Source: an uncultured Bdellovibrionales bacterium
GTDB taxonomy: Bacteria > Patescibacteriota > Minisyncoccia > Moranbacterales > UBA1568
Reading direction: 5' to 3'
DNA: 64,000 nucleotides
NCBI GenBank assembly: GCA_964612055.1
Contig: CAZTBI010000001.1
Span: 228,824 to 292,823 of the forward strand
The position numbers and the translations under genes are program-made. The notes under the pieces were generated by a model, which was not told the DNA's origin, made no database searches, and was given only the letters and a program-made list of their open reading frames with translations. Below are positions 14,303-51,029 of this stretch, piece by piece; the first letter of the stretch is position 1; each line of letters opens with the position of its first letter.

Positions 14303-15130
14303 TTAAATTATTTGTGATAACTTCAGACTCTCCTGTATCCCAAGCGGTTTGATATGGGTGAGCTTTTGCATGAGAGTGTTATCGAGAGATGTATCCACAA
14401 GCATACCGTCTGGTTGTGGTGAAGGCATTGGCACACCATGGAGCCCAGCTGTGGGTACTCCCAGTGTCTCCATTCCCTCTCGGGTAAATTCATACACATT
14501 CATTCTCTCGCCAGAAATATGAATGAGACCAGTATAGTCCGAAAGAGTCAGTATCGTGATGATTTCGGCAGCTTGGTGATAACTGAGAGGAGATTTGTAC
14601 ATGTCAGTGAAACGAGACACTTCCTTCCCTTGGTTCAGATCCTTACGAACTACTTCCAGTCGATCGTCGAGTACACCACTAACGAATCCATACATATAGC
14701 TCGGTCGGATGATGCAATGATTTTCCGTATTCTTTCGAACGAGGTTCTCACAAAGTTCCAGATTCCTACCGTAGAGCGTTACAGGCTGAGGTTGATCGGA
14801 TTCTGTATACATACCTTTCTTGCCATCAAAGATACCATCACTTGATATGTACACTATTCTCGAATTCTTAAAGAACTGGAGAAAGCGCTTCATGGCTTGT
14901 TCGAGAGCGGCGCTATCCTCTGTAAATTCTATCTTGGCTGGGATGATCACTGCGTCAATCTCTTTGCCAGCAAAAACTTTCTCCGGATCATCATTGAAGA
15001 AATCATACTGGCGAGAGGTCTTAAATTTCTGATGCATATTATGCGTCATGACAACATCAGCACCACGTTCTTTGAGTACGCGACATAATTCTTCTCCAAG
15101 AAACCCTGTCCCTATAACCGCTACTCGCAT
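14303..15130 (-). CDS. NAD(P)-dependent sugar epimerase/reductase (RmlD-like)
   Basis: MRVAVIGTGFLGEEL Rossmann motif. Confidence 0.65.
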   Translation of the reverse strand: MRVAVIGTGFLGEELCRVLKERGADVVMTHNMHQKFKTSRQYDFFNDDPEKVFAGKEIDAVIIPAKIEFTEDSAALEQAMKRFLQFFKNSRIVYISSDGIFDGKKGMYTESDQPQPVTLYGRNLELCENLVRKNTENHCIIRPSYMYGFVSGVLDDRLEVVRKDLNQGKEVSRFTDMYKSPLSYHQAAEIITILTLSDYTGLIHISGERMNVYEFTREGMETLGVPTAGLHGVPMPSPQPDGMLVDTSLDNTLMQKLTHIKPLGIQESLKLSQII

Positions 15131-15147: not shown

Positions 15148-15846
15148 TTAGAATTTTCGATGGGAAAATTGGACGATATAGGCAAGCTGAGTTTCCATAT
15201 ATTCTGGTTTATCTCGACGGTAGGAAAAGTATTTTTCCTTGAGACAGTAGGAACACTCACCGGAGTCTATTATTTTTTCAGGCAGTATACCGAGACTTTC
15301 GGCCTGCTGACGCATAATCCCCTTCAAATCAACATGAATACCATTGTCACGAGAGATATATTCTGGATACTGAGCAAATGATGAAAGGACGTCTTCTTGT
15401 ATTTCAAAATGTTTCGCACAAATACCAGGACCAAAAGTAAGAATTATTTCAGATCTTTTCCCACCAGCTTTTTCAATCGCAGAAAGAGTCTCGGCAATAA
15501 CTCCAGCGACAATACCGCGCCATCCACAGTGCGCCAAGCCGATGATGCCAGAGTGTTTTTCTTCAAAGTAAACCGGGAAACAATCAGCTCCGGTGAGCGT
15601 GAGAATAATATCTGAGTCTTTGGTAACGAGAGCATCTGTTTCGGGGGTGATATATGGAGAATGTCGATTGATCATTGCCACCCGTGTACCATGTACCAGG
15701 TTCGCAACAACAATTTGCTTTCCGCCAAGTCTGAGTGCTTCGAAAAACTCTTTACGATGAGCAATATTCTCTGCGCGCGGATTGGTAAGCGGCAAATACA
15801 TCGAGCCATCCTTCTTTTCCGAAAATCCTTTCAAAACTTTGTTCAT
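15148..15846 (-). CDS. pgeF: Laccase-domain protein YfiH/PgeF
   Basis: GADCFPV and HCGWRG motifs. Confidence 0.8.
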   Translation of the reverse strand: MNKVLKGFSEKKDGSMYLPLTNPRAENIAHRKEFFEALRLGGKQIVVANLVHGTRVAMINRHSPYITPETDALVTKDSDIILTLTGADCFPVYFEEKHSGIIGLAHCGWRGIVAGVIAETLSAIEKAGGKRSEIILTFGPGICAKHFEIQEDVLSSFAQYPEYISRDNGIHVDLKGIMRQQAESLGILPEKIIDSGECSYCLKEKYFSYRRDKPEYMETQLAYIVQFSHRKF

Positions 15847-17302: not shown

Positions 17303-19231
17303 TTATTTTTTCTCTTCGCTAGGCTTCTCCTCGCCAGCAGGCTCGGTTTCGGCGTCCCTTGGAGCTTCCGTAGAGCCTTCCTTCTTCTCGCCATCTTCTG
17401 CCTGGCTCGGCGAAGCTTTAGCGGAGTCGGCAGCGGCTTGGTACAGTTTTTGTCCGATTTTTTGCGCCTCTTGAGACAAAACCTCGGTAGCTTTCTTGAT
17501 GGCTTCTAGATCATCGCCATTCTTTACCTTGTTCAATTCCGTGATGGCGTCTTCGACTGGTTTCTTCTCATCAGCCGTGACCTTGTCACCCGCATCCTTG
17601 AGTGCCTTTTCTGTCGTGTAGGACAGAGTATCAGCCATATTACGAGCTTCGATCAATTCTTTCTTTTTCTTGTCTTCATCAGCATGCATCTCAGCATCCT
17701 TCTTCATACGCTCGATCTCCTCTTTGGAAAGTCCAGTTGAAGACTCGATACGAATGTTCTGACTCTTGCCGGTCGCCTTGTCCTTGGCGGTTACCGAGAG
17801 AATACCAGAAGCATCAATGTCGAATGTGACTTCGATCTGTGGCACCCCGCGTGGAGCAGGCATGATGCCATCGAGGATGAACTGACCGAGAGATTTGTTG
17901 TCAGAGGCCATCTCACGCTCACCCTGGAGCACATGAATCTGCACGCTCGGCTGATTGTCAGACGCGGTCGAGAAGACCTGTGAGCGGCTAACTGGGATAG
18001 TCGTGTTGCGATCAATAAGCGGTGTCCGGACTCCTCCCATGGTTTCGATACCAAAGGTAAGCGGCGTGACATCAAGCAAGAGCACATCTTTCACCGAACC
18101 TTCGAGCACACCACCCTGGATAGCAGCACCGAGAGCCACTACTTCATCTGGGTTCACCGTGATGTTTGCCTTCTTGCCGAAGAATTTCTCAACAGAAGAA
18201 AGGACAAGTGGCATACGGGTCATACCACCGACCAACACCACTTCGTTGATATCAGAGACAGAGAGCTTGGCATCAGCAAGTGCTTTCTTGACTGGTTCAA
18301 ACGATGCCTCAACCAAGTCACCGACTAATTCTTCCAGCTTGGCACGGCTCATCTTGATCAGAAGGTGCTTCGGACCATCGCTACCGGCAGTGATAAACGG
18401 CTGATTGATTTCTGTTTCTTGAGCGGTCGAGAGTTCAATCTTGGCTTTTTCAGCAGCTTCCTTGATACGCTGGAGCGCCAATGGATCTTTCGAGAGATCG
18501 AGTCCTTCTTGCTTCTTGAATTCATCGAGAATCCAGTGAATAATCCGCTGATCGAAGTCATCACCACCTAAGTGGGTATCACCGTTGGTCGAACGGACTT
18601 CTACGGTGTCTTCGGAAACTTCGAGGATAGAGATATCAAAGGTTCCACCACCTAAGTCATAGACAGCGATCTTCTCATCTTTCTTTTTGTTGAAACCATA
18701 GGCGAGCGCTGCTGCTGTTGGTTCGTTGATGATACGACGGACATTGAAGCCTGCGATTTCTCCAGCTTCTTTGGTCGCTTTGCGTTGCGAATCATCGAAG
18801 TAGGCCGGTACGGTGATGACCGCGTCGGTGATCTTTTCTCCGAGCTTTTCCTCAGCATCCGCTTTCAGTTTGGCGAGGATCATACCACTAATTTCCTGTG
18901 GTGTGTATTCTTTGCCACCCATGACGATCTTCACCCCTTCACCGGCCTGAATAACCTTGTACGGCAAGGTCTTCATGTCGCGGCTCACTTCTTCATCGTT
19001 GAAATGTCGTCCGATGAGACGCTTCACGGAGAACAGCGTGTTCTCTGGATTGGTGACCGATTGGCGCTTGGCAAGCAAACCTACCAGACGCTCATTAGTC
19101 TTGCTCATCGCTACCATCGACGGCGTGGTGCGATTCCCCTCCTTGTTTTCGATAATGCTAGGAGTCCCTCCTTCGACAAATGCCATCGCCGAGTTGGTGG
19201 TCCCGAGATCGATACCTAATATCTTGGCCAT
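17303..19231 (-). CDS. dnaK: Chaperone DnaK (Hsp70)
   Basis: [16 protein letters not shown] and other Hsp70 signatures. Confidence 0.95.
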
Positions 19232-19271: not shown

Positions 19272-20177
19272 TTATTTTACTGATACTTTTGCTGGGCGGA
19301 TCACTTTGCCTCCAAGTCGGAAACCATTTTGGAGTACTTTCGCTATCACATGCTTTTCTGCTTCTTTCTTCCCTTGCCCGTCCGTAGCCTCGGCAGAGGA
19401 GGGTTCGTTTTCTTGACTGACGGCTTCATGAATAGTCGGATCAAATGCGTCCCCTTCTTTTGCTTCTATCACTTCGACACCGTTCTGCTTTACTACGTCT
19501 TCCAACTGTTTCTCGATGTACTGGATACCAACGACCCAAGGGCTCTCTTTCTGTTCCGGTGGGACATGCATGGTCGCGGCACGGAAGTTATCGAGAACTG
19601 GGATGATATCGAGAACCAATTTTTCTATCAGATAGCCGCCAAGTTCTTTCTGTGATTCCTGCTGACGCTTTTTGTAGTTTTCAAAGTCCGCCTGTATTCG
19701 CTTGAGATCTGTCAGATATTCTTCCTTCTGTATATGAGTTGTAGCAGAACGGATAAACTCCTTTAGCCATGATTTATACTCTTTTCCGGATTCTATCTCC
19801 TCGACCGTCTTCCAATCGTATTCAGAATGTTCATCACTGATATTGATTTCTCCACCTTTGAAAATAGTGAGGTAGGCGAATACCGCTCGGTATGGGTCGT
19901 TGTTTCGGTCTGAATCAAGTTTCATGTGACATCCAGCAACCGCACCCTTGAGGTCAAATTCTATCTCTTCTCCTAATTCTTCTTTAATTTCACGAAACAG
20001 AGCCGCTTCCACATTTTCTCCTGTATCTACTCGACCCCCGGGAAGCTCCCATGGGCCATACTTCTGATGATACTCTGAATCCTCAAACGCATCCTTCACC
20101 AAAAGAAACTTCTTATCGCTTGGTCGGTACAGAATTATTTTCTGACTGAGTTGGAAATGTTCGTAATTTTTGTTCAT
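19272..20177 (-). CDS. grpE: Fusion protein: N-terminal Nudix hydrolase domain plus C-terminal GrpE nucleotide-exchange factor
   Basis: Residues about 1-150 carry a perfect Nudix box [25 protein letters not shown]. Residues about 155-301 are GrpE-like (DFENYKKR helix, [14 protein letters not shown] tail). It sits between hrcA and dnaK. Confidence 0.8.
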
Positions 20178-20181
20178 ATTT

Positions 20182-20937
20182 TTATCCGATGAAATATACG
20201 GCGTTACTGGTTACTAAAATTATTACGAGTGAGGAGCCGAGCATCTTGCGCATGTATTCAATGAGGGATTTGTTCTTGGCGTAGTCCATGCGCTTGGGAC
20301 CGATGATAGCGAGCATGCCGCGTCCTTCGTCTGTCTGATAGGGAGCCACAATCATGGAACAGTTATTGATACCACTGATAGGGTTTTCATTACCGATAAA
20401 AATACGTGTTTCACCATCTTTCAATTTCAGCATGATACCGTCTACTTTTTCATCGAGCGAATCCAGTGTTTCTACCAACTGACAGAGCTCATCCATTTCT
20501 TGAAATTCTGGATTGTCGATCAGTTCCCGAATTCCGAAATCGTAGTATTCATCTTTATCAACGATACCTGAGACGGCGAGGTTACCAGAGAGGGATGAGA
20601 GGAGCTTGGCGGTACTGCGACCCAGGCGCATGTGCTTGGCTTTCAGAGTCAGGAGTTCTTTTTGCAAACGACGTTGATCTTCGCGTGACAGATCCTGATC
20701 CCCCATCATCTCCTCAACGTAGATCCGATACCCTTGGTCAGTCGGGATACGTCCGGCAGAGACGTGCGGTTGATACAGATACCCCTCTTCTTCCAAGGCT
20801 GCCATGTCGTTTCGCAACGTTGCCGAGCTTACTCCGAAATCATAATGTTCAAGCAGTGCCTGTGAACCAACTGGGATCGCTGTCTTGGTGTACAGTTCGA
20901 CGATCGCAGAAAGAAGTTGTTTTTGACGATCATTCAT
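20182..20937 (-). CDS. hrcA: Heat-inducible transcription repressor HrcA
   Basis: HrcA-like sequence. Start set at MNDRQKQLL. The ORF-track start at 20979 is a GTG inside the CIRCE element. Confidence 0.85.
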   Translation of the reverse strand: MNDRQKQLLSAIVELYTKTAIPVGSQALLEHYDFGVSSATLRNDMAALEEEGYLYQPHVSAGRIPTDQGYRIYVEEMMGDQDLSREDQRRLQKELLTLKAKHMRLGRSTAKLLSSLSGNLAVSGIVDKDEYYDFGIRELIDNPEFQEMDELCQLVETLDSLDEKVDGIMLKLKDGETRIFIGNENPISGINNCSMIVAPYQTDEGRGMLAIIGPKRMDYAKNKSLIEYMRKMLGSSLVIILVTSNAVYFIG

Positions 20938-20958
20938 AAAGTTTTCTATTACAACTTC

Positions 20959-20999
20959 ATTATATAAAGTGATTAGCACTCTGTCAAGTAGAGTGCTAA
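20959..20999 (-). promoter_or_regulatory. CIRCE operator TTAGCACTC-N9-GAGTGCTAA, with the -35 TTGACA inside the spacer and a -10 TATAAT (17-nt spacing) for the hrcA-grpE-dnaK operon
   Basis: Read directly: CIRCE at 20973-20999, -35 at 20982-20987 and -10 at 20959-20964 on the minus strand. Confidence 0.85.
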
Positions 21000-21064
21000 T
21001 TAGGAAGCATCTGGCATTTTTAGGTATGAAAAAAGCCCGGAGGATAGCGATCCTTTCGAGCTTG

Positions 21065-21250
21065 TCAGCGATTCATCAAAGACGGCTTCTTGCTATCCAC
21101 GCTGTTGTGGGCATAGCAAGGAACGCGCGCCGGGCAAGTCTCACAGAACATACTGCCGACGTGTTGCTTGGCATCTTCGATTGGTATCCGCATACCGACG
21201 CCATTTCGTTTGGCAAGACACATCACGGTTGGAACAAGAGGCACTTCCAT
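21065..21250 (-). CDS. Small Cys4 protein (61 aa), paralog of the 21443-21619 product
   Basis: GAGGAA SD that incorporates the stop of the upstream ORF. Cys spacing C-x24-C-x2-C-x5-C is shared with its paralog. Confidence 0.45.
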   Translation of the reverse strand: MEVPLVPTVMCLAKRNGVGMRIPIEDAKQHVGSMFCETCPARVPCYAHNSVDSKKPSLMNR

Positions 21251-21254
21251 TGTT

Positions 21255-21428
21255 TCCTCATTTCTTGTTGCGCATCCGGTGTGGAACCTTACGGCGGTTG
21301 TTTTTCTTCCGCCGCGACGTCGGGTTGTTGGAATGACTCGATCCCCTTCGACTCAAGGCCGGTTCAGCAGAAGCAGCCAACGCCATTGCCCAGAGCAATA
21401 CAGGGAGCACGAGGTAATCTTTCAGCAT
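21255..21428 (-). CDS. Small secreted, highly basic peptide (57 aa; signal peptide ending ASA, then an Arg/Lys-rich 36-aa mature part)
   Basis: AGGAGA SD that incorporates the TAG of the upstream ORF. Translation: MLKDYLVLPVLLWAMALAASAEPALSRRGSSHSNNPTSRRKKNNRRKVPHRMRNKK. Confidence 0.4.
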
Positions 21429-21442
21429 TTCAGTGTCTCCTA

Positions 21443-21619
21443 TTTCTCAGTCGAGGGAGGCTGGTTGCATGATTGCCTCACAGGACAATGTTCACACACC
21501 CAACCACCATTGTTGTACTTTCGGGCTTTTCGCAGCTTGATGTGTTCTCCGCGTCCCCTGTTGGCAACTTGGCAGTAGACCAGAGTTCTACCGCCAGCCC
21601 TGATGACAATAGTCTTCAT
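21443..21619 (-). CDS. Small Cys4 protein (58 aa)
   Basis: AAGGAG SD 7 nt upstream. Translation: MKTIVIRAGGRTLVYCQVANRGRGEHIKLRKARKYNNGGWVCEHCPVRQSC. It is absent from the ORF list because it is under 60 aa. Confidence 0.45.
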
Positions 21620-21656
21620 GATCTACTCCTTCTCAATCAAAAAAATGAAGCACTCC

Positions 21657-22046
21657 TCAGGAGAGGCCGAACTTGGCGAGGAAGGCAGCTTCTTCCGCCC
21701 GAGACCTCTCCTTTGCTAGCTCGTCCAGAGCCATTGAACATTCAACCCCGCATACGCCCGACCAGAGACGCTTGACTGGATCGTTCGGCTTTTTGCCGTC
21801 ATCACGATACCCCCACGGGAGTTGAAACGTCTTCTTGCAGCCTGTAACAGGCTGAGCAAGGCAGGTAAGAACCGGCAGATGATCATGTTCCGTACCACGA
21901 GCCTCCGTCGGCCGTTTATAGACGATGGTTTTTTCGGGACGCCTCTCTCTTTGCTCATCCTCATCACTGTCTACGAGATGCGGCAGGGCTCCACCGCGCA
22001 GCCTCTTGAAATCGTCCAGCGACGTCAATTTCGCAGGTCTGGCCAT
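21657..22046 (-). CDS. Hypothetical protein, high GC, with a CxxxC pair
   Basis: 129-aa ORF in an operon with yidD and the small-protein module. Confidence 0.4.
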   Translation of the reverse strand: MARPAKLTSLDDFKRLRGGALPHLVDSDEDEQRERRPEKTIVYKRPTEARGTEHDHLPVLTCLAQPVTGCKKTFQLPWGYRDDGKKPNDPVKRLWSGVCGVECSMALDELAKERSRAEEAAFLAKFGLS

Positions 22047-22074: not shown

Positions 22075-22326
22075 TCACGACAATGGGTCGTACCCACCGT
22101 CGTTCCATGGATGGCAGCGAAGGACACGTTTGCATCCTATCCAGCTTCCTCGGAAAACTCCATAGCGTTCGATCGCCTGATAGGAGTACTCTGAGCACGT
22201 CGGATAGAATCGGCAGAAGCGCTCGCCGAAAATCTTACCTATGATCCCATGGTCAAAGGACAGGGTTTTTTGATAGAGACGAATAAGCCCAAGTACGATG
22301 CTCTTCCACATATCGTCATTCTCCAT
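22075..22326 (-). CDS. yidD: Membrane protein insertion efficiency factor YidD
   Basis: RFYPTCSEY...[15 protein letters not shown] motifs. Confidence 0.75.
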
Positions 22327-22399: not shown

Positions 22400-23308
22400 A
22401 TGAAAACCATCGAGCACAAACACCTCACATGGATTGATTTTGAGAATCCAGCGCCGGACGATATCACCTATCTCCAGGAGAACTTCAATATCCATCCGCT
22501 GGCCATTGAAGAACTGGTCACGCCAACGTACCAACCAAAAGTCGTTCAGTACGATGGCTGTTTGTTTTTTTCCGTCCACATTCCGCTTTTTGATACCAAA
22601 CTGCGCACTACCTATCCGGGTGAACTCGACATCATTCTGACCAACCACCACCTGATCACCAGTCACAAGCAAGGCATCTATCAATTGACCAACTTTTTTG
22701 AGTCACTCGAAAAGAGCGAAGGAAAACGCCGTCTCTTTCTCGAGAACTCCCCTGCCAAGCTCCTGCACCAATTGCTCGAAATTCTGCTCAATTCTTGCTT
22801 TCCTCGACTCGATCATATTAGTAAGAAGCTCGACTTTATCGAAGCCGAAGTGTTCGCTGGCAAAGAAAAGGAAATGGTGTTTGAAATATCCGTTCTCAAA
22901 CGTGATGTGCTCAATTTCCGCCGAACGCTCAAGCCGCAACGCGCCATCATCGAATCCCTCGTTCAAAAAGATCATCCGTTCATCCCGGATGACATGAAGG
23001 TATATTTCAGTGACCTGGTCGGTACCAACATCCGTCTCTGGAACATGCTCGAGAGTCAAAAAGAAACCATCGAAGCCTTGGAAGATACCAACAACTCTCT
23101 CCTCTCGAACAAACTCGACCAGACCATGAAAGTGCTCACTATCTTCTCGGCCATCCTCCTCCCCCTGACTGCCTACTCCAACATGATGGCCATGAATGCT
23201 GCCGTACCCTTTCTCGGGAACCACTACGGCTTTTGGATCCATCTCGGCATCATGGCCGTGATTTCTGTCATGACCTTTGGTATCTTCAAATTCAAAAAGT
23301 GGCTGTAA
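22400..23308 (+). CDS. corA: CorA family magnesium/cobalt transporter
   Basis: Two C-terminal TM helices and an AMN variant of the GMN motif. The antisense ORF 22316-22684 was rejected. Confidence 0.8.
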   Translation: MKTIEHKHLTWIDFENPAPDDITYLQENFNIHPLAIEELVTPTYQPKVVQYDGCLFFSVHIPLFDTKLRTTYPGELDIILTNHHLITSHKQGIYQLTNFFESLEKSEGKRRLFLENSPAKLLHQLLEILLNSCFPRLDHISKKLDFIEAEVFAGKEKEMVFEISVLKRDVLNFRRTLKPQRAIIESLVQKDHPFIPDDMKVYFSDLVGTNIRLWNMLESQKETIEALEDTNNSLLSNKLDQTMKVLTIFSAILLPLTAYSNMMAMNAAVPFLGNHYGFWIHLGIMAVISVMTFGIFKFKKWL

Positions 23309-48761: not shown

Positions 48762-49229
48762 TTAGAAATCCAATACCGGAACTACCTCAGTTTCCAGTAT
48801 TGTATCCCCTTCTCCAAAGAGAAATTTCGTACGAAATTTTTTACCAGTCAGGAACACCGGCACCCAATGAATGTCGTCCGGCCACATCTCATCGTAAGGA
48901 ATAGCATCAGTCGTGAACCACTGCGGTCGCATCTCTTCGGTTTCTCGCGGTTCCCCTGTCCAAGTATCAACCCGAAAAACGTGCACTTCCAAAATATCAC
49001 CTCGCGCATTTTCAAATTCAAACTCATGAATACCAACTTTTTCCATCTCCGTGATCACGATACCGCACTCTTCCTCAGTTTCTCGTTTGGCAGCAGCCTC
49101 AATCGTTTCCCCTGCTTCTACCTTCCCGCCAAAGCCATTCCACCGTCCCGCGCCAAACCCACGCTTCTTCATACCTAGAAGTATCTGATTTTCCCGAAGC
49201 ACAAGACACAGTGTCAGTATTTTCCGCAT
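48762..49229 (-). CDS. Nudix hydrolase
   Basis: Nudix box GGKVEAGETIEAAAKRETEEECG. Confidence 0.8.
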   Translation of the reverse strand: MRKILTLCLVLRENQILLGMKKRGFGAGRWNGFGGKVEAGETIEAAAKRETEEECGIVITEMEKVGIHEFEFENARGDILEVHVFRVDTWTGEPRETEEMRPQWFTTDAIPYDEMWPDDIHWVPVFLTGKKFRTKFLFGEGDTILETEVVPVLDF

Positions 49230-50382: not shown

Positions 50383-50838
50383 TTATATCTTGAATCCTGA
50401 TTTTTTGATAATTTTCAATTGATCACGGAAGGCACTATGAAGAGGTTTTGGTAACTTACTCGATCGAAACCAAGCAAGTTCTTCCATCTTATCCGGCTCA
50501 CCAATTTTCACTTTTTTGGGATCAACTTGCGCAACAAAGAGAAATGCAATCCAATGGGTCTTAGTAGTACCGTTCTTTCGCAAAACATTGCGCGCACCAA
50601 AAAACTGAAGCTTCTTCGCTCTTACACAATACTCTTCCCGTATTTCCCGGATGACTCCTTGTTCAGGGGTTTCTCCAAATTCCAATGATCCTGATCCGGT
50701 ATCCCAACGGCCAACTTCATCTCGACAATTCTTACTCCGTTTGTGCATGAGAAGATTTCCTCTTCCATCGTGACAAAAAAATACACATGTCACCCCGATA
50801 AAATCTACACCCTTTTTCAGATCAAATGATTTTTTCAT
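50383..50838 (-). CDS. Nudix hydrolase
   Basis: Nudix box GSGSLEFGETPEQGVIREIREEYCV. Start at MKKSFDLKKG. Confidence 0.75.
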   Translation of the reverse strand: MKKSFDLKKGVDFIGVTCVFFCHDGRGNLLMHKRSKNCRDEVGRWDTGSGSLEFGETPEQGVIREIREEYCVRAKKLQFFGARNVLRKNGTTKTHWIAFLFVAQVDPKKVKIGEPDKMEELAWFRSSKLPKPLHSAFRDQLKIIKKSGFKI

Positions 50839-51029
50839 ATCGGCTCTCCAAATACTTCTTCTTTTACCCTTTTCACTTCGTCCTCTTTCTCGATAATAAC
50901 TCCTTTGTGAAGTTTGTAGAGAAGCGGGATCACGCCACAATTTTCACATTTTCCCCAATTGCAACCCTTTTGCTTATGATGAAGCCTACGACACATCCCC
51001 AGTTCTTTTTCAAAAGTTTCCTTGTCCAT
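50835..51029 (-). CDS. Small Cys4 protein (about 64 aa), translationally coupled to the secA stop
   Basis: The ATG lies 3 nt after the secA TAG; CNWGKCENCG and two further Cys; ATGA overlap with the downstream Nudix start. Confidence 0.35.
   Translation of the reverse strand: MDKETFEKELGMCRRLHHKQKGCNWGKCENCGVIPLLYKLHKGVIIEKEDEVKRVKEEVFGEPI

Follow-up and report, generated by a model that had tools for sequence, protein, structure and literature searches.

The hrcA-grpE-dnaK heat-shock operon of an uncultured bacterium was found to encode a GrpE protein whose N-terminal half is a predicted Nudix hydrolase; in close relatives, this half is missing or exchanged for a different module. The operon lies in a 64,000-nucleotide stretch of contig CAZTBI010000001.1 (GenBank assembly GCA_964612055.1; hereafter, the window), in which the gene order is hrcA, a single open reading frame (ORF) for the Nudix-GrpE protein, and dnaK. 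The fusion ORF begins 4 nt downstream of hrcA and ends 40 nt upstream of dnaK. According to the reading favoured here, in which our confidence is evenly divided, a working GrpE mounts, dimerises, and co-regulates a heat-inducible MutT/NudI-like nucleotide-cleaning enzyme.

A sequence-only reading of this DNA had proposed that both domains reside on one polypeptide between hrcA and dnaK, and Pfam analysis bears this out, with both families significant and above their cut-offs. The NUDIX family (PF00293) matches residues 13-142 at 56.5 bits against a gathering cut-off of 21.1 (E 3.8e-15), and GrpE (PF01025) matches residues 147-300 of the same polypeptide at 124.5 bits against 25.8 (E 4.4e-36), spanning profile positions 25-163 of 165. 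The motifs quoted in the sequence-only reading were located at residues 47-71 (the Nudix box region), 164-171 (DFENYKKR), and 285-298 (the GrpE beta-tail motif). The ORF upstream of the fusion contains the HrcA C-terminal domain (PF01628, 83 bits), and no second GrpE was found within the window.

A homologue search over 5.8 billion proteins gave 497 matches, the best 120 clusters of which were examined. Full-length fusions with both Pfam domains account for 106 of these 120 clusters (274-345 aa, 43-74% identity), and the architecture is thus common to more than 100 protein clusters. Where the source databases name these homologues, they do so only as "nucleotide exchange factor GrpE" or "molecular chaperone GrpE". 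It might be supposed that separate nudix and grpE genes were joined in the window by a sequencing or assembly error, or by a missed stop codon, and one related metagenome-assembled genome (MAG), L042, does hold its Nudix and GrpE halves in different reading frames. The likelihood of such an artefact is, however, close to nil: the 301-aa ORF is free of internal stops in both the ORF list and the translation, two contigs assembled independently of each other (NCBI GCA_020049755.1 and Logan SRR16481186) both encode precisely this 301-aa protein, more than 100 diverged homologues have the same continuous architecture and junction length, and the junction is a confident single helix in the AlphaFold model. 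Frameshift and mis-assembly were ruled out on the uninterrupted ORF, the two identical assemblies, and the proportion of full-length fusions among the best clusters. As for L042 itself (L042:2968-3829, MAG contig JALWAF010000016.1), its two overlapping frames may be those of a fusion in decay, or else the MAG may contain a frameshift or an assembly error.

The Nudix half has the hallmarks of an active enzyme. Its box contains every specified residue of the GX5EX7REUXEEXGU signature, as quoted in PMC10148737, except for the final U, which is E70 here. In an alignment of 104 fused proteins (mean column identity 41%), G47, G48, R62, E66, E67, and E116 are invariant, and E54, E63, G69, H117, and W122 are at least 90% conserved; the picture is unchanged when 44 sequences of only the Nudix half are aligned. 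The earlier description of a textbook Nudix box is therefore sound, the box being canonical apart from E70 and conserved across the 104 homologues. This half also has conserved elements of its own: a motif of the form S-x-E-H-x-E-Y-x-W and, at its C-terminus, a K-P-W-L-K helix continuous with GrpE. The six-residue spacing between E116 and W122 is presumably equal to that between Glu98 and Trp104 of Escherichia coli MutT; because an hmmalign alignment of the Nudix half to E. coli MutT fell short of Glu98, the correspondence of E116 with Glu98 is read from the spacing to the Trp alone. The predicted structure likewise adopts the alpha-beta-alpha Nudix fold, with Foldseek E-values of 1e-9 to 5e-8 and target-normalised TM-scores of 0.76-0.82 to several solved Nudix enzymes.

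The C-terminal half is predicted to be the ordinary working GrpE of this organism, the nucleotide exchange factor of DnaK. It retains the GrpE family columns in the 104-sequence alignment, it matches 4ANI (E 9e-29), 3A6M, 8GB3, and 1DKG in profile searches of the PDB, and Foldseek returned 1DKG_B and a GrpE-DnaK model. An AlphaFold2 model built on the 104-sequence alignment has a mean predicted local distance difference test score (pLDDT) of 91.6 and places helices at residues 136-203 and 213-231, followed by beta strands over residues 234-300. Pfam, AlphaFold, and the PDB profiles thus agree with the sequence-only reading that this is a recognisable GrpE with a long helix, a four-helix bundle, and a beta tail. 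All 25 listed GrpE equivalog models of NCBIfam scored below their cut-offs (best, NF010741, with 101.4 bits against 184); these models were trained on other phyla, and a score below the cut-off may be expected for a divergent lineage. The sole low-confidence stretch of the AlphaFold model is an acidic low-complexity insert in the beta domain (19350..19412; residues ~256-276), which the closest unfused relative, P0039, also contains, and which is shorter or absent in others. Both domains of the fusion are under purifying selection.

The two halves are joined rigidly. In the AlphaFold model, the C-terminal helix of the Nudix domain runs unbroken into the long helix of GrpE and on into the first helix of the four-helix bundle. 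In PDB profile alignments, residue 43 of E. coli GrpE falls at approximately profile position 140, and the alignment of Thermus GrpE begins at position 123; the terminal Nudix helix therefore lies where the canonical long helix would have its first turns. The length of the junction is all but fixed, with 27 residues from the W137 column to D164 in 103 of the 104 sequences and 42 residues from W122 to D164 in 97 of them, and a flexible linker is absent. Unlike this junction, the stretch between E67 and E116 inside the Nudix domain differs in length across the family, from 38 to 51 residues.

The N-terminus of GrpE is usually regarded as a short disordered tail, and comparison with close relatives indicates that the Nudix domain occupies exactly this position. 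In P0039, the Nudix domain is replaced by a 33-aa acidic tail, while the GrpE half is 95% identical to that of the window and carries the same unusual acidic insert. The proposal that a Nudix domain stands in place of the disordered GrpE N-terminus is hence confirmed. The contig encoding P0039 (L003) is 96% identical to the window through the 3' end of hrcA to ~20218 and 91% identical again from ~19724 through the C-terminal half of grpE and dnaK (blastn and pairwise alignment), with sharp boundaries on either side of the variable cassette. The GC content of the cassette is 41.9%, compared with 46.6% for the GrpE half. On a 116-kb contig of another relative (L001), the synteny from CorA to hrcA-grpE-dnaK is kept around a 167-aa GrpE that lacks the Nudix domain. 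The halves of the fusion also diverge separately: relative to the window protein, P0002 is 82% identical in the Nudix half and 68% in the GrpE half, whereas the corresponding values for P0004 are 33% and 93%. Several fused and unfused GrpE proteins begin alike over the first dozen residues (MLKKKVNQESG...) and then go on as a Nudix domain in some and an acidic tail in others, which is the product expected of homologous recombination between alleles.

No evidence was found that DnaK has co-adapted to the Nudix module. The DnaK of the window is 94.6% identical to that of a relative with an unfused GrpE, and, when each alignment column of 33 DnaK sequences (15 from fused and 18 from unfused loci) was subjected to a Fisher test, no column tracked the presence of the Nudix domain; the best p-value, 1.3e-4, came without clean separation and is not significant after ~3000 tests, and phylogeny confounds the comparison. 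In a neighbour-joining tree built from 166 GrpE domains, the fused and unfused states intermingle, and parsimony requires at least 21 switches (a rough figure). The Nudix module is thus dispensable and interchangeable among close relatives.

The named organisms among the fusion homologues are Candidatus Moranbacteria/Moraniibacteriota, Patescibacteria, and Peribacteria, and the host of the window is thus itself a Moranbacteria-like member of the candidate phyla radiation (CPR). Genome contigs were scanned with the full-length fusion alignment, and stop-to-stop ORFs were checked with hidden Markov models built from the alignments; the resulting counts are lower bounds. Among GTDB species representatives, at least 18 fused loci and at least ~25 unfused Moranbacteria-like loci were detected, and no fused locus outside the CPR was found among the matches listed. 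Several third-party-assembled MAGs titled as Bdellovibrionales, Micavibrio, Fimivivens, or Bathyarchaeia (including L004, L005, L007, L008, L013, L017, L019, and L026) contain a Moranbacteria-type hrcA-grpE-dnaK operon. Where compared, their DnaK proteins are 72-89% identical to that of the window, and these titles look wrong.

Scores against the type A profile, the lineage of the window, divide the fused Nudix domains into three groups (Table 1), all of which have a canonical Nudix box. Free-standing Nudix proteins of 140-156 aa that are 45-58% identical to type C domains (e.g., P0366) occur in DPANN archaea, Peregrinibacteria, and other groups; the identity of type C to type A is ~27-38%, and a comparison of the domains alone gives 31% to the Nudix domain of the window. 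Because type C is closer to free-standing Nudix proteins than to type A, the data point to at least two separate fusions of a Nudix domain to GrpE. Type A domains of 150-158 aa also occur as separate genes within the operon. Loci L084-L086 (free-standing Nudix P0123; L084:4001-5334) have the order hrcA, Nudix, Nudix-GrpE, dnaK, the fused domain in L084 being of type B, and L091 and L092 are similar (free-standing Nudix P0122; L091:2203-3586). Moreover, the 447-aa protein P0142 is a tandem Nudix-Nudix-GrpE fusion (A-B-GrpE). Free type A genes beside Nudix-GrpE operons, together with this tandem protein, show that two Nudix lineages co-occur with GrpE. The association with the heat-shock operon seems to be specific to this clade, since P0129, a related free-standing Nudix protein of a non-CPR, high-GC organism, is encoded away from heat-shock genes.

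A different enzyme is predicted at the same GrpE N-terminus in L034, L036, and ten protein clusters (P0269-P0277 and P0279; 301-326 aa). This domain of ~165 aa has no Pfam match at thresholds and carries an invariant G-S ... D-x-D signature. Its AlphaFold model (pLDDT ~90) resembles CCA-adding enzymes, the MenT1 toxin, ANT(2'')-Ia, and the lincosamide adenylyltransferase LnuA; on these structural likenesses, the domain is predicted to be a small Pol-beta-type nucleotidyltransferase. The same nucleotidyltransferase-like domain was also seen in P0304, a 490-aa protein from a JGI/ENA metagenome, where it is fused to an HhH-GPD DNA glycosylase rather than to GrpE.

Upstream of hrcA, a predicted controlling inverted repeat of chaperone expression (CIRCE) was the sole match in the window even when up to three mismatches were allowed, with 0.02 matches expected by chance. 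From the coordinates, the -35 hexamer of a sigma-70-type promoter falls inside the CIRCE loop. Overlap of CIRCE with a promoter is the classic layout of HrcA repression; thus, expression of the Nudix-GrpE protein should be heat-shock inducible and controlled by CIRCE and HrcA. The GTG start listed for hrcA (20979) lies inside both the operator and the promoter and is therefore taken to be wrong, the true start being probably the ATG at 20937. The ~650 nt upstream of the heat-shock promoter (21000..21656) contain overlapping ORFs only and have no Rfam match; Pfam gave no match to an adjoining 129-aa ORF (21657..22046, minus strand). Across the window, Rfam returned three tRNAs and nothing else.

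Table 1. Features of the Nudix-GrpE operon (window coordinates) and of related fusions.
Feature	Position	Strand	Details
Nudix-GrpE fusion gene	19272..20177	-	301 aa plus stop codon; ATG start
Nudix domain, type A lineage	19728..20177	-	aa 1-150; Pfam, AlphaFold (pLDDT ~97), Foldseek
Nudix box	19968..20036	-	aa 48-70; G48-RVDTG-E54-NVEAALF-R62-E63-I-K-E66-E67-L-G69-E70
GrpE domain	19278..19739	-	aa 147-300; long helix, four-helix bundle, beta domain
Single predicted helix	19569..19772	-	aa 136-203; AlphaFold pLDDT 88-98
Variable cassette	19725..20217	-	493 bp: hrcA end plus Nudix codons 1-151; versus 121 bp of acidic-tail sequence in L003
dnaK	17303..19231	-	642 aa; HSP70 PF00012, 848 bits; last operon gene as seen here
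hrcA	20182..20937	-	likely ATG start at 20937 (MNDRQKQLL...); listed span 20182..20979
Sigma-70-type promoter	20959..20987	-	TTGACA-17-TATAAT; 12/12 consensus positions
CIRCE operator (predicted HrcA binding site)	20973..20999	.	TTAGCACTC-N9-GAGTGCTAA; 0 mismatches
Type A fusions (including the window)			at least 100 bits with type A profile; 104 sequences
Type B fusions			55-78 bits with type A profile; 13 sequences
Type C fusions			33-52 bits with type A profile; 9 sequences
Nucleotidyltransferase-like-GrpE fusions	L036:2503-3483; L034:2521-3447		related Moranbacteria loci

The other neighbours of the operon are ordinary. A Cu-oxidase_4 (YfiH-like) protein (15148..15846, minus strand) and an RmlD-like reductase (14303..15130, minus strand) lie on one side, and YidD (22075..22326, minus strand) and CorA (22400..23308, plus strand) on the other, with the CorA-hrcA-grpE-dnaK synteny retained in relatives. 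Two free-standing Nudix genes were also detected by Pfam (48762..49229, minus strand, 155 aa, 65 bits; 50383..50940, minus strand, 185 aa, 58 bits), both ~30 kb from the operon and near a tRNA-Ala gene; the fused domain is therefore not the only Nudix protein of this genome.

The Nudix half is apparently a small pyrophosphohydrolase of the MutT/NudI/ApnA (diadenosine polyphosphate)-hydrolase class, and it is predicted to be catalytically competent. A PDB profile search gave 3GRN, an uncharacterised MutT-like protein from Methanosarcina mazei, as the nearest solved Nudix structure (E 5e-18), followed by NudI, BdRppH, CTP pyrophosphohydrolases, MutT proteins, and Nudix hydrolases of diadenosine tetraphosphate (Ap4A). 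The Foldseek neighbours were similar, comprising 3GRN, the Aquifex Ap4A hydrolase 3I7U, Mycobacterium smegmatis MutT2, NudI, BdRppH, and the Thermus Ap6A hydrolase 1VC8 (20-24% identity), along with E. coli RppH; fold similarity to 3I7U and 1VC8 was no better than to nucleoside triphosphate (NTP) pyrophosphatases. The curated Nudix equivalogs of NCBIfam all scored far below their cut-offs: 39.2 bits against 95 for NudI, 28.7 against 97.9 for MutT (TIGR00586), 29.9 against 156 for NudG (NF007834), 18-27 against 116-259 for the RNA pyrophosphohydrolase models, and 16 against 80-169 for NudE and YffH. By score, the nearest classes are MutT, NudI, and NudG, with membership short of the curated cut-offs. 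Subfamily markers gave no finer assignment. According to Dunn et al. (1999), ApnA hydrolases are reportedly marked by a Tyr ~18 residues after the Nudix box, ADP-ribose pyrophosphatases by a Pro ~16 residues after it, NADH pyrophosphatases by SQPWPFPxS, and the CoA class by a NuCoA motif upstream of the box. In the fusion, the Tyr is not at its expected place, where residues 86-90 read K, L, D, S, D (the length of this segment varies across the family), and direct reading of the sequence revealed none of the other three markers. Since these markers are absent and the similarity found by NCBIfam, PDB sequence profiles, and Foldseek stays at the level of class, the substrate cannot be named, and attempts at such an assignment were set aside. 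A role in defence was likewise rejected: PADLOC returned only a generic Nudix match to the candidate system PDC-S07 (~42 bits), and the operon context is one of housekeeping genes.

In the favoured reading, the Nudix half would replace a dispensable acidic tail of GrpE, and the whole protein would be made from the CIRCE/HrcA-controlled heat-shock promoter. Because GrpE forms a parallel dimer, its coiled coil would carry two Nudix domains, fixed rigidly next to each other at the tip. GrpE would thereby supply dimerisation, stoichiometric co-expression, and heat-shock regulation, while ADP leaving DnaK would not be handled directly. The most likely role of the enzyme would be stress-induced "house-cleaning", that is, the removal of aberrant or signalling nucleotides, for example oxidised or non-canonical (deoxy)NTPs and possibly dinucleoside polyphosphates. 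More broadly, the GrpE N-terminus in this clade may serve as a swappable socket that accepts an acidic tail, Nudix domains of at least two unrelated lineages, two Nudix domains at once, or a nucleotidyltransferase. Several points weigh against this reading. A separate gene in the operon would suffice for co-expression, and such genes exist; at least two free-standing Nudix genes are present in the window as well. As no substrate can be assigned, "house-cleaning" is a guess at the level of class. Finally, the repeated fusion specifically to GrpE and the rigid, fixed-length junction hint at a functional tie to the chaperone for which this reading offers no account.

The main rival reading is direct coupling to the DnaK cycle: the tethered Nudix domain would destroy a nucleotide that binds or inhibits DnaK (Ap4A, other dinucleoside polyphosphates, or damaged adenine nucleotides), or its occupancy would tune the exchange activity or thermosensing of GrpE, in either case linking chaperone cycling to the pool of stress nucleotides. 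Whether Ap4A matters for DnaK has been a point of debate since 1991. In complexes of GrpE with DnaK from E. coli, Geobacillus, and M. tuberculosis, the N-terminal tip of the long helix points toward the linker and substrate-binding domain of DnaK, and the beta domain, at the opposite end, wedges open the nucleotide cleft; the Nudix domain, at the far N-terminal end of this helix, would thus be remote from the cleft. Moreover, ADP is not a usual Nudix substrate, the Tyr marker of ApnA hydrolases is absent (residues 86-90), the module has been lost or replaced in relatives whose GrpE is 95% and DnaK ~94-95% identical, and no DnaK column co-varies with it. Direct coupling is nevertheless consistent with the recurrence of GrpE-specific fusions from at least two Nudix lineages, with the rigid junction of fixed length, with a second nucleotide-handling enzyme (the nucleotidyltransferase) in the same socket, with the presence of the Ap4A hydrolase 3I7U and the Ap6A hydrolase 1VC8 among the closest folds, and with the heat-shock regulation of the operon. 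The earlier suggestion that the tethered enzyme hydrolyses ADP released by GrpE, or Ap4A bound to DnaK, was not supported, given the lack of an Ap4A subfamily signature or model, the interchangeable module, the lack of co-adaptation in DnaK, and the geometry of the known complexes. Its other premise, that Ap4A binds DnaK, is founded in real literature, in that Ap4A cross-links to DnaK in E. coli (reviewed in PMC10148737); coupling is hence an unlikely explanation but a live minority hypothesis.

Two further possibilities carry less weight. The Nudix domain may act on a nucleotide of a macromolecule held by the chaperone, for instance by removing a 5' pyrophosphate (as RppH does) or an Np4 or NAD cap from RNA, or by trimming ADP-ribose on DnaK-held proteins. 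Its structural neighbours include BdRppH and E. coli RppH, and in the known complexes the substrate-binding domain of DnaK is close to the N-terminal end of GrpE. The alternative nucleotidyltransferase module is similar to MenT toxins and ANT/Lnu transferases, enzymes that attach nucleotides to RNA or small molecules. The RppH models are, however, all far below their cut-offs, the weak Nudt16-like Pfam hits to the fusion and several relatives are sub-threshold (17 bits against a gathering score of 27 in the fusion), and no RNA-binding or macro-type domain is present on the protein, which leaves this purely inferential proposal improbable. Alternatively, the domain could be a non-catalytic ligand sensor, or a folded stand-in for the acidic tail, that modulates GrpE without hydrolysis. 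In E. coli and Thermus, the coiled coil of GrpE acts as a thermosensor, and NrtR regulators offer an analogy, their Nudix domain sensing ADP-ribose; a Nudix domain in the exact position of the tail could pass a conformational change to the coiled coil through the rigid helical junction. The REx2EE residues and Glu116 are nonetheless invariant or nearly so in 104 diverged sequences and in three Nudix lineages, which is unexpected for a pseudo-enzyme and makes a sensor very improbable.

A bolder generalisation, rather doubtful at present, is that the GrpE N-terminus of Moranbacteria-like CPR bacteria has evolved as a docking socket for nucleotide-processing enzymes that act on the DnaK machine, its nucleotides, or its clients, for example by destroying Ap4A-type inhibitors or by writing and erasing a nucleotide mark. 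If true, this would constitute a previously unknown layer of Hsp70 regulation that is polymorphic within populations.

The sequence-only reading had also suspected that this architecture was undescribed. Indeed, no description of a Nudix-GrpE protein was found in the full-text literature searched, the coverage of which is poor for subscription journals, so that an earlier mention is possible. Both domains belong to textbook families, and the combination is already in public databases, annotated as plain GrpE; what is new here is a GrpE with a predicted enzymatic N-terminal module and the polymorphism of this cassette at the population level. Few co-chaperones have been studied as thoroughly as GrpE, whose N-terminus appears to have been used repeatedly, and apparently independently, for nucleotide-acting enzymes on a rigid helical mount. 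If these enzymes communicate with DnaK, they would provide a new link between chaperone cycling and stress nucleotides such as Ap4A; if they do not, they would represent a natural case in which streamlined genomes have turned a coiled-coil protein into a dimerising, heat-inducible scaffold. The near-identical natural variants, with an acidic tail, Nudix A, Nudix B, tandem Nudix, or nucleotidyltransferase, constitute ready-made experimental controls. In practical terms, hundreds of database entries annotated as "nucleotide exchange factor GrpE" contain a second predicted enzymatic domain that this name does not reveal.

Each half of the fusion has well-known counterparts. With the canonical GrpE proteins of E. 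coli (1DKG), Geobacillus kaustophilus (4ANI), Thermus (3A6M), and M. tuberculosis (8GB3), the fusion shares its C-terminal 155 aa, which match the profile end to end, as well as the flanking hrcA and dnaK genes and CIRCE control; it differs from them in having a folded 150-aa Nudix domain where they have a disordered acidic N-terminal tail. With small single-domain Nudix hydrolases (3GRN, NudI 6DT3/3OGA, MutT2, 3I7U, and BdRppH 3EES), it shares the Nudix fold and the canonical box, and its downstream Glu has a spacing like that of Glu98 in MutT. These solved enzymes are, however, only 20-24% identical to the Nudix half, and none of them is fused to a chaperone component. One parallel in concept, among other nucleotide-related domains fused to proteins of the Hsp70 system, is provided by the PilZ-DnaK proteins of Myxococcus xanthus (PMC10313047), in which a nucleotide-recognising domain is likewise part of the same polypeptide as a member of the DnaK machinery. 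The two cases have no sequence relationship, and they differ in arrangement: in M. xanthus, a receptor for cyclic di-GMP is placed on DnaK itself, whereas in the window a predicted hydrolase is placed on its exchange factor.

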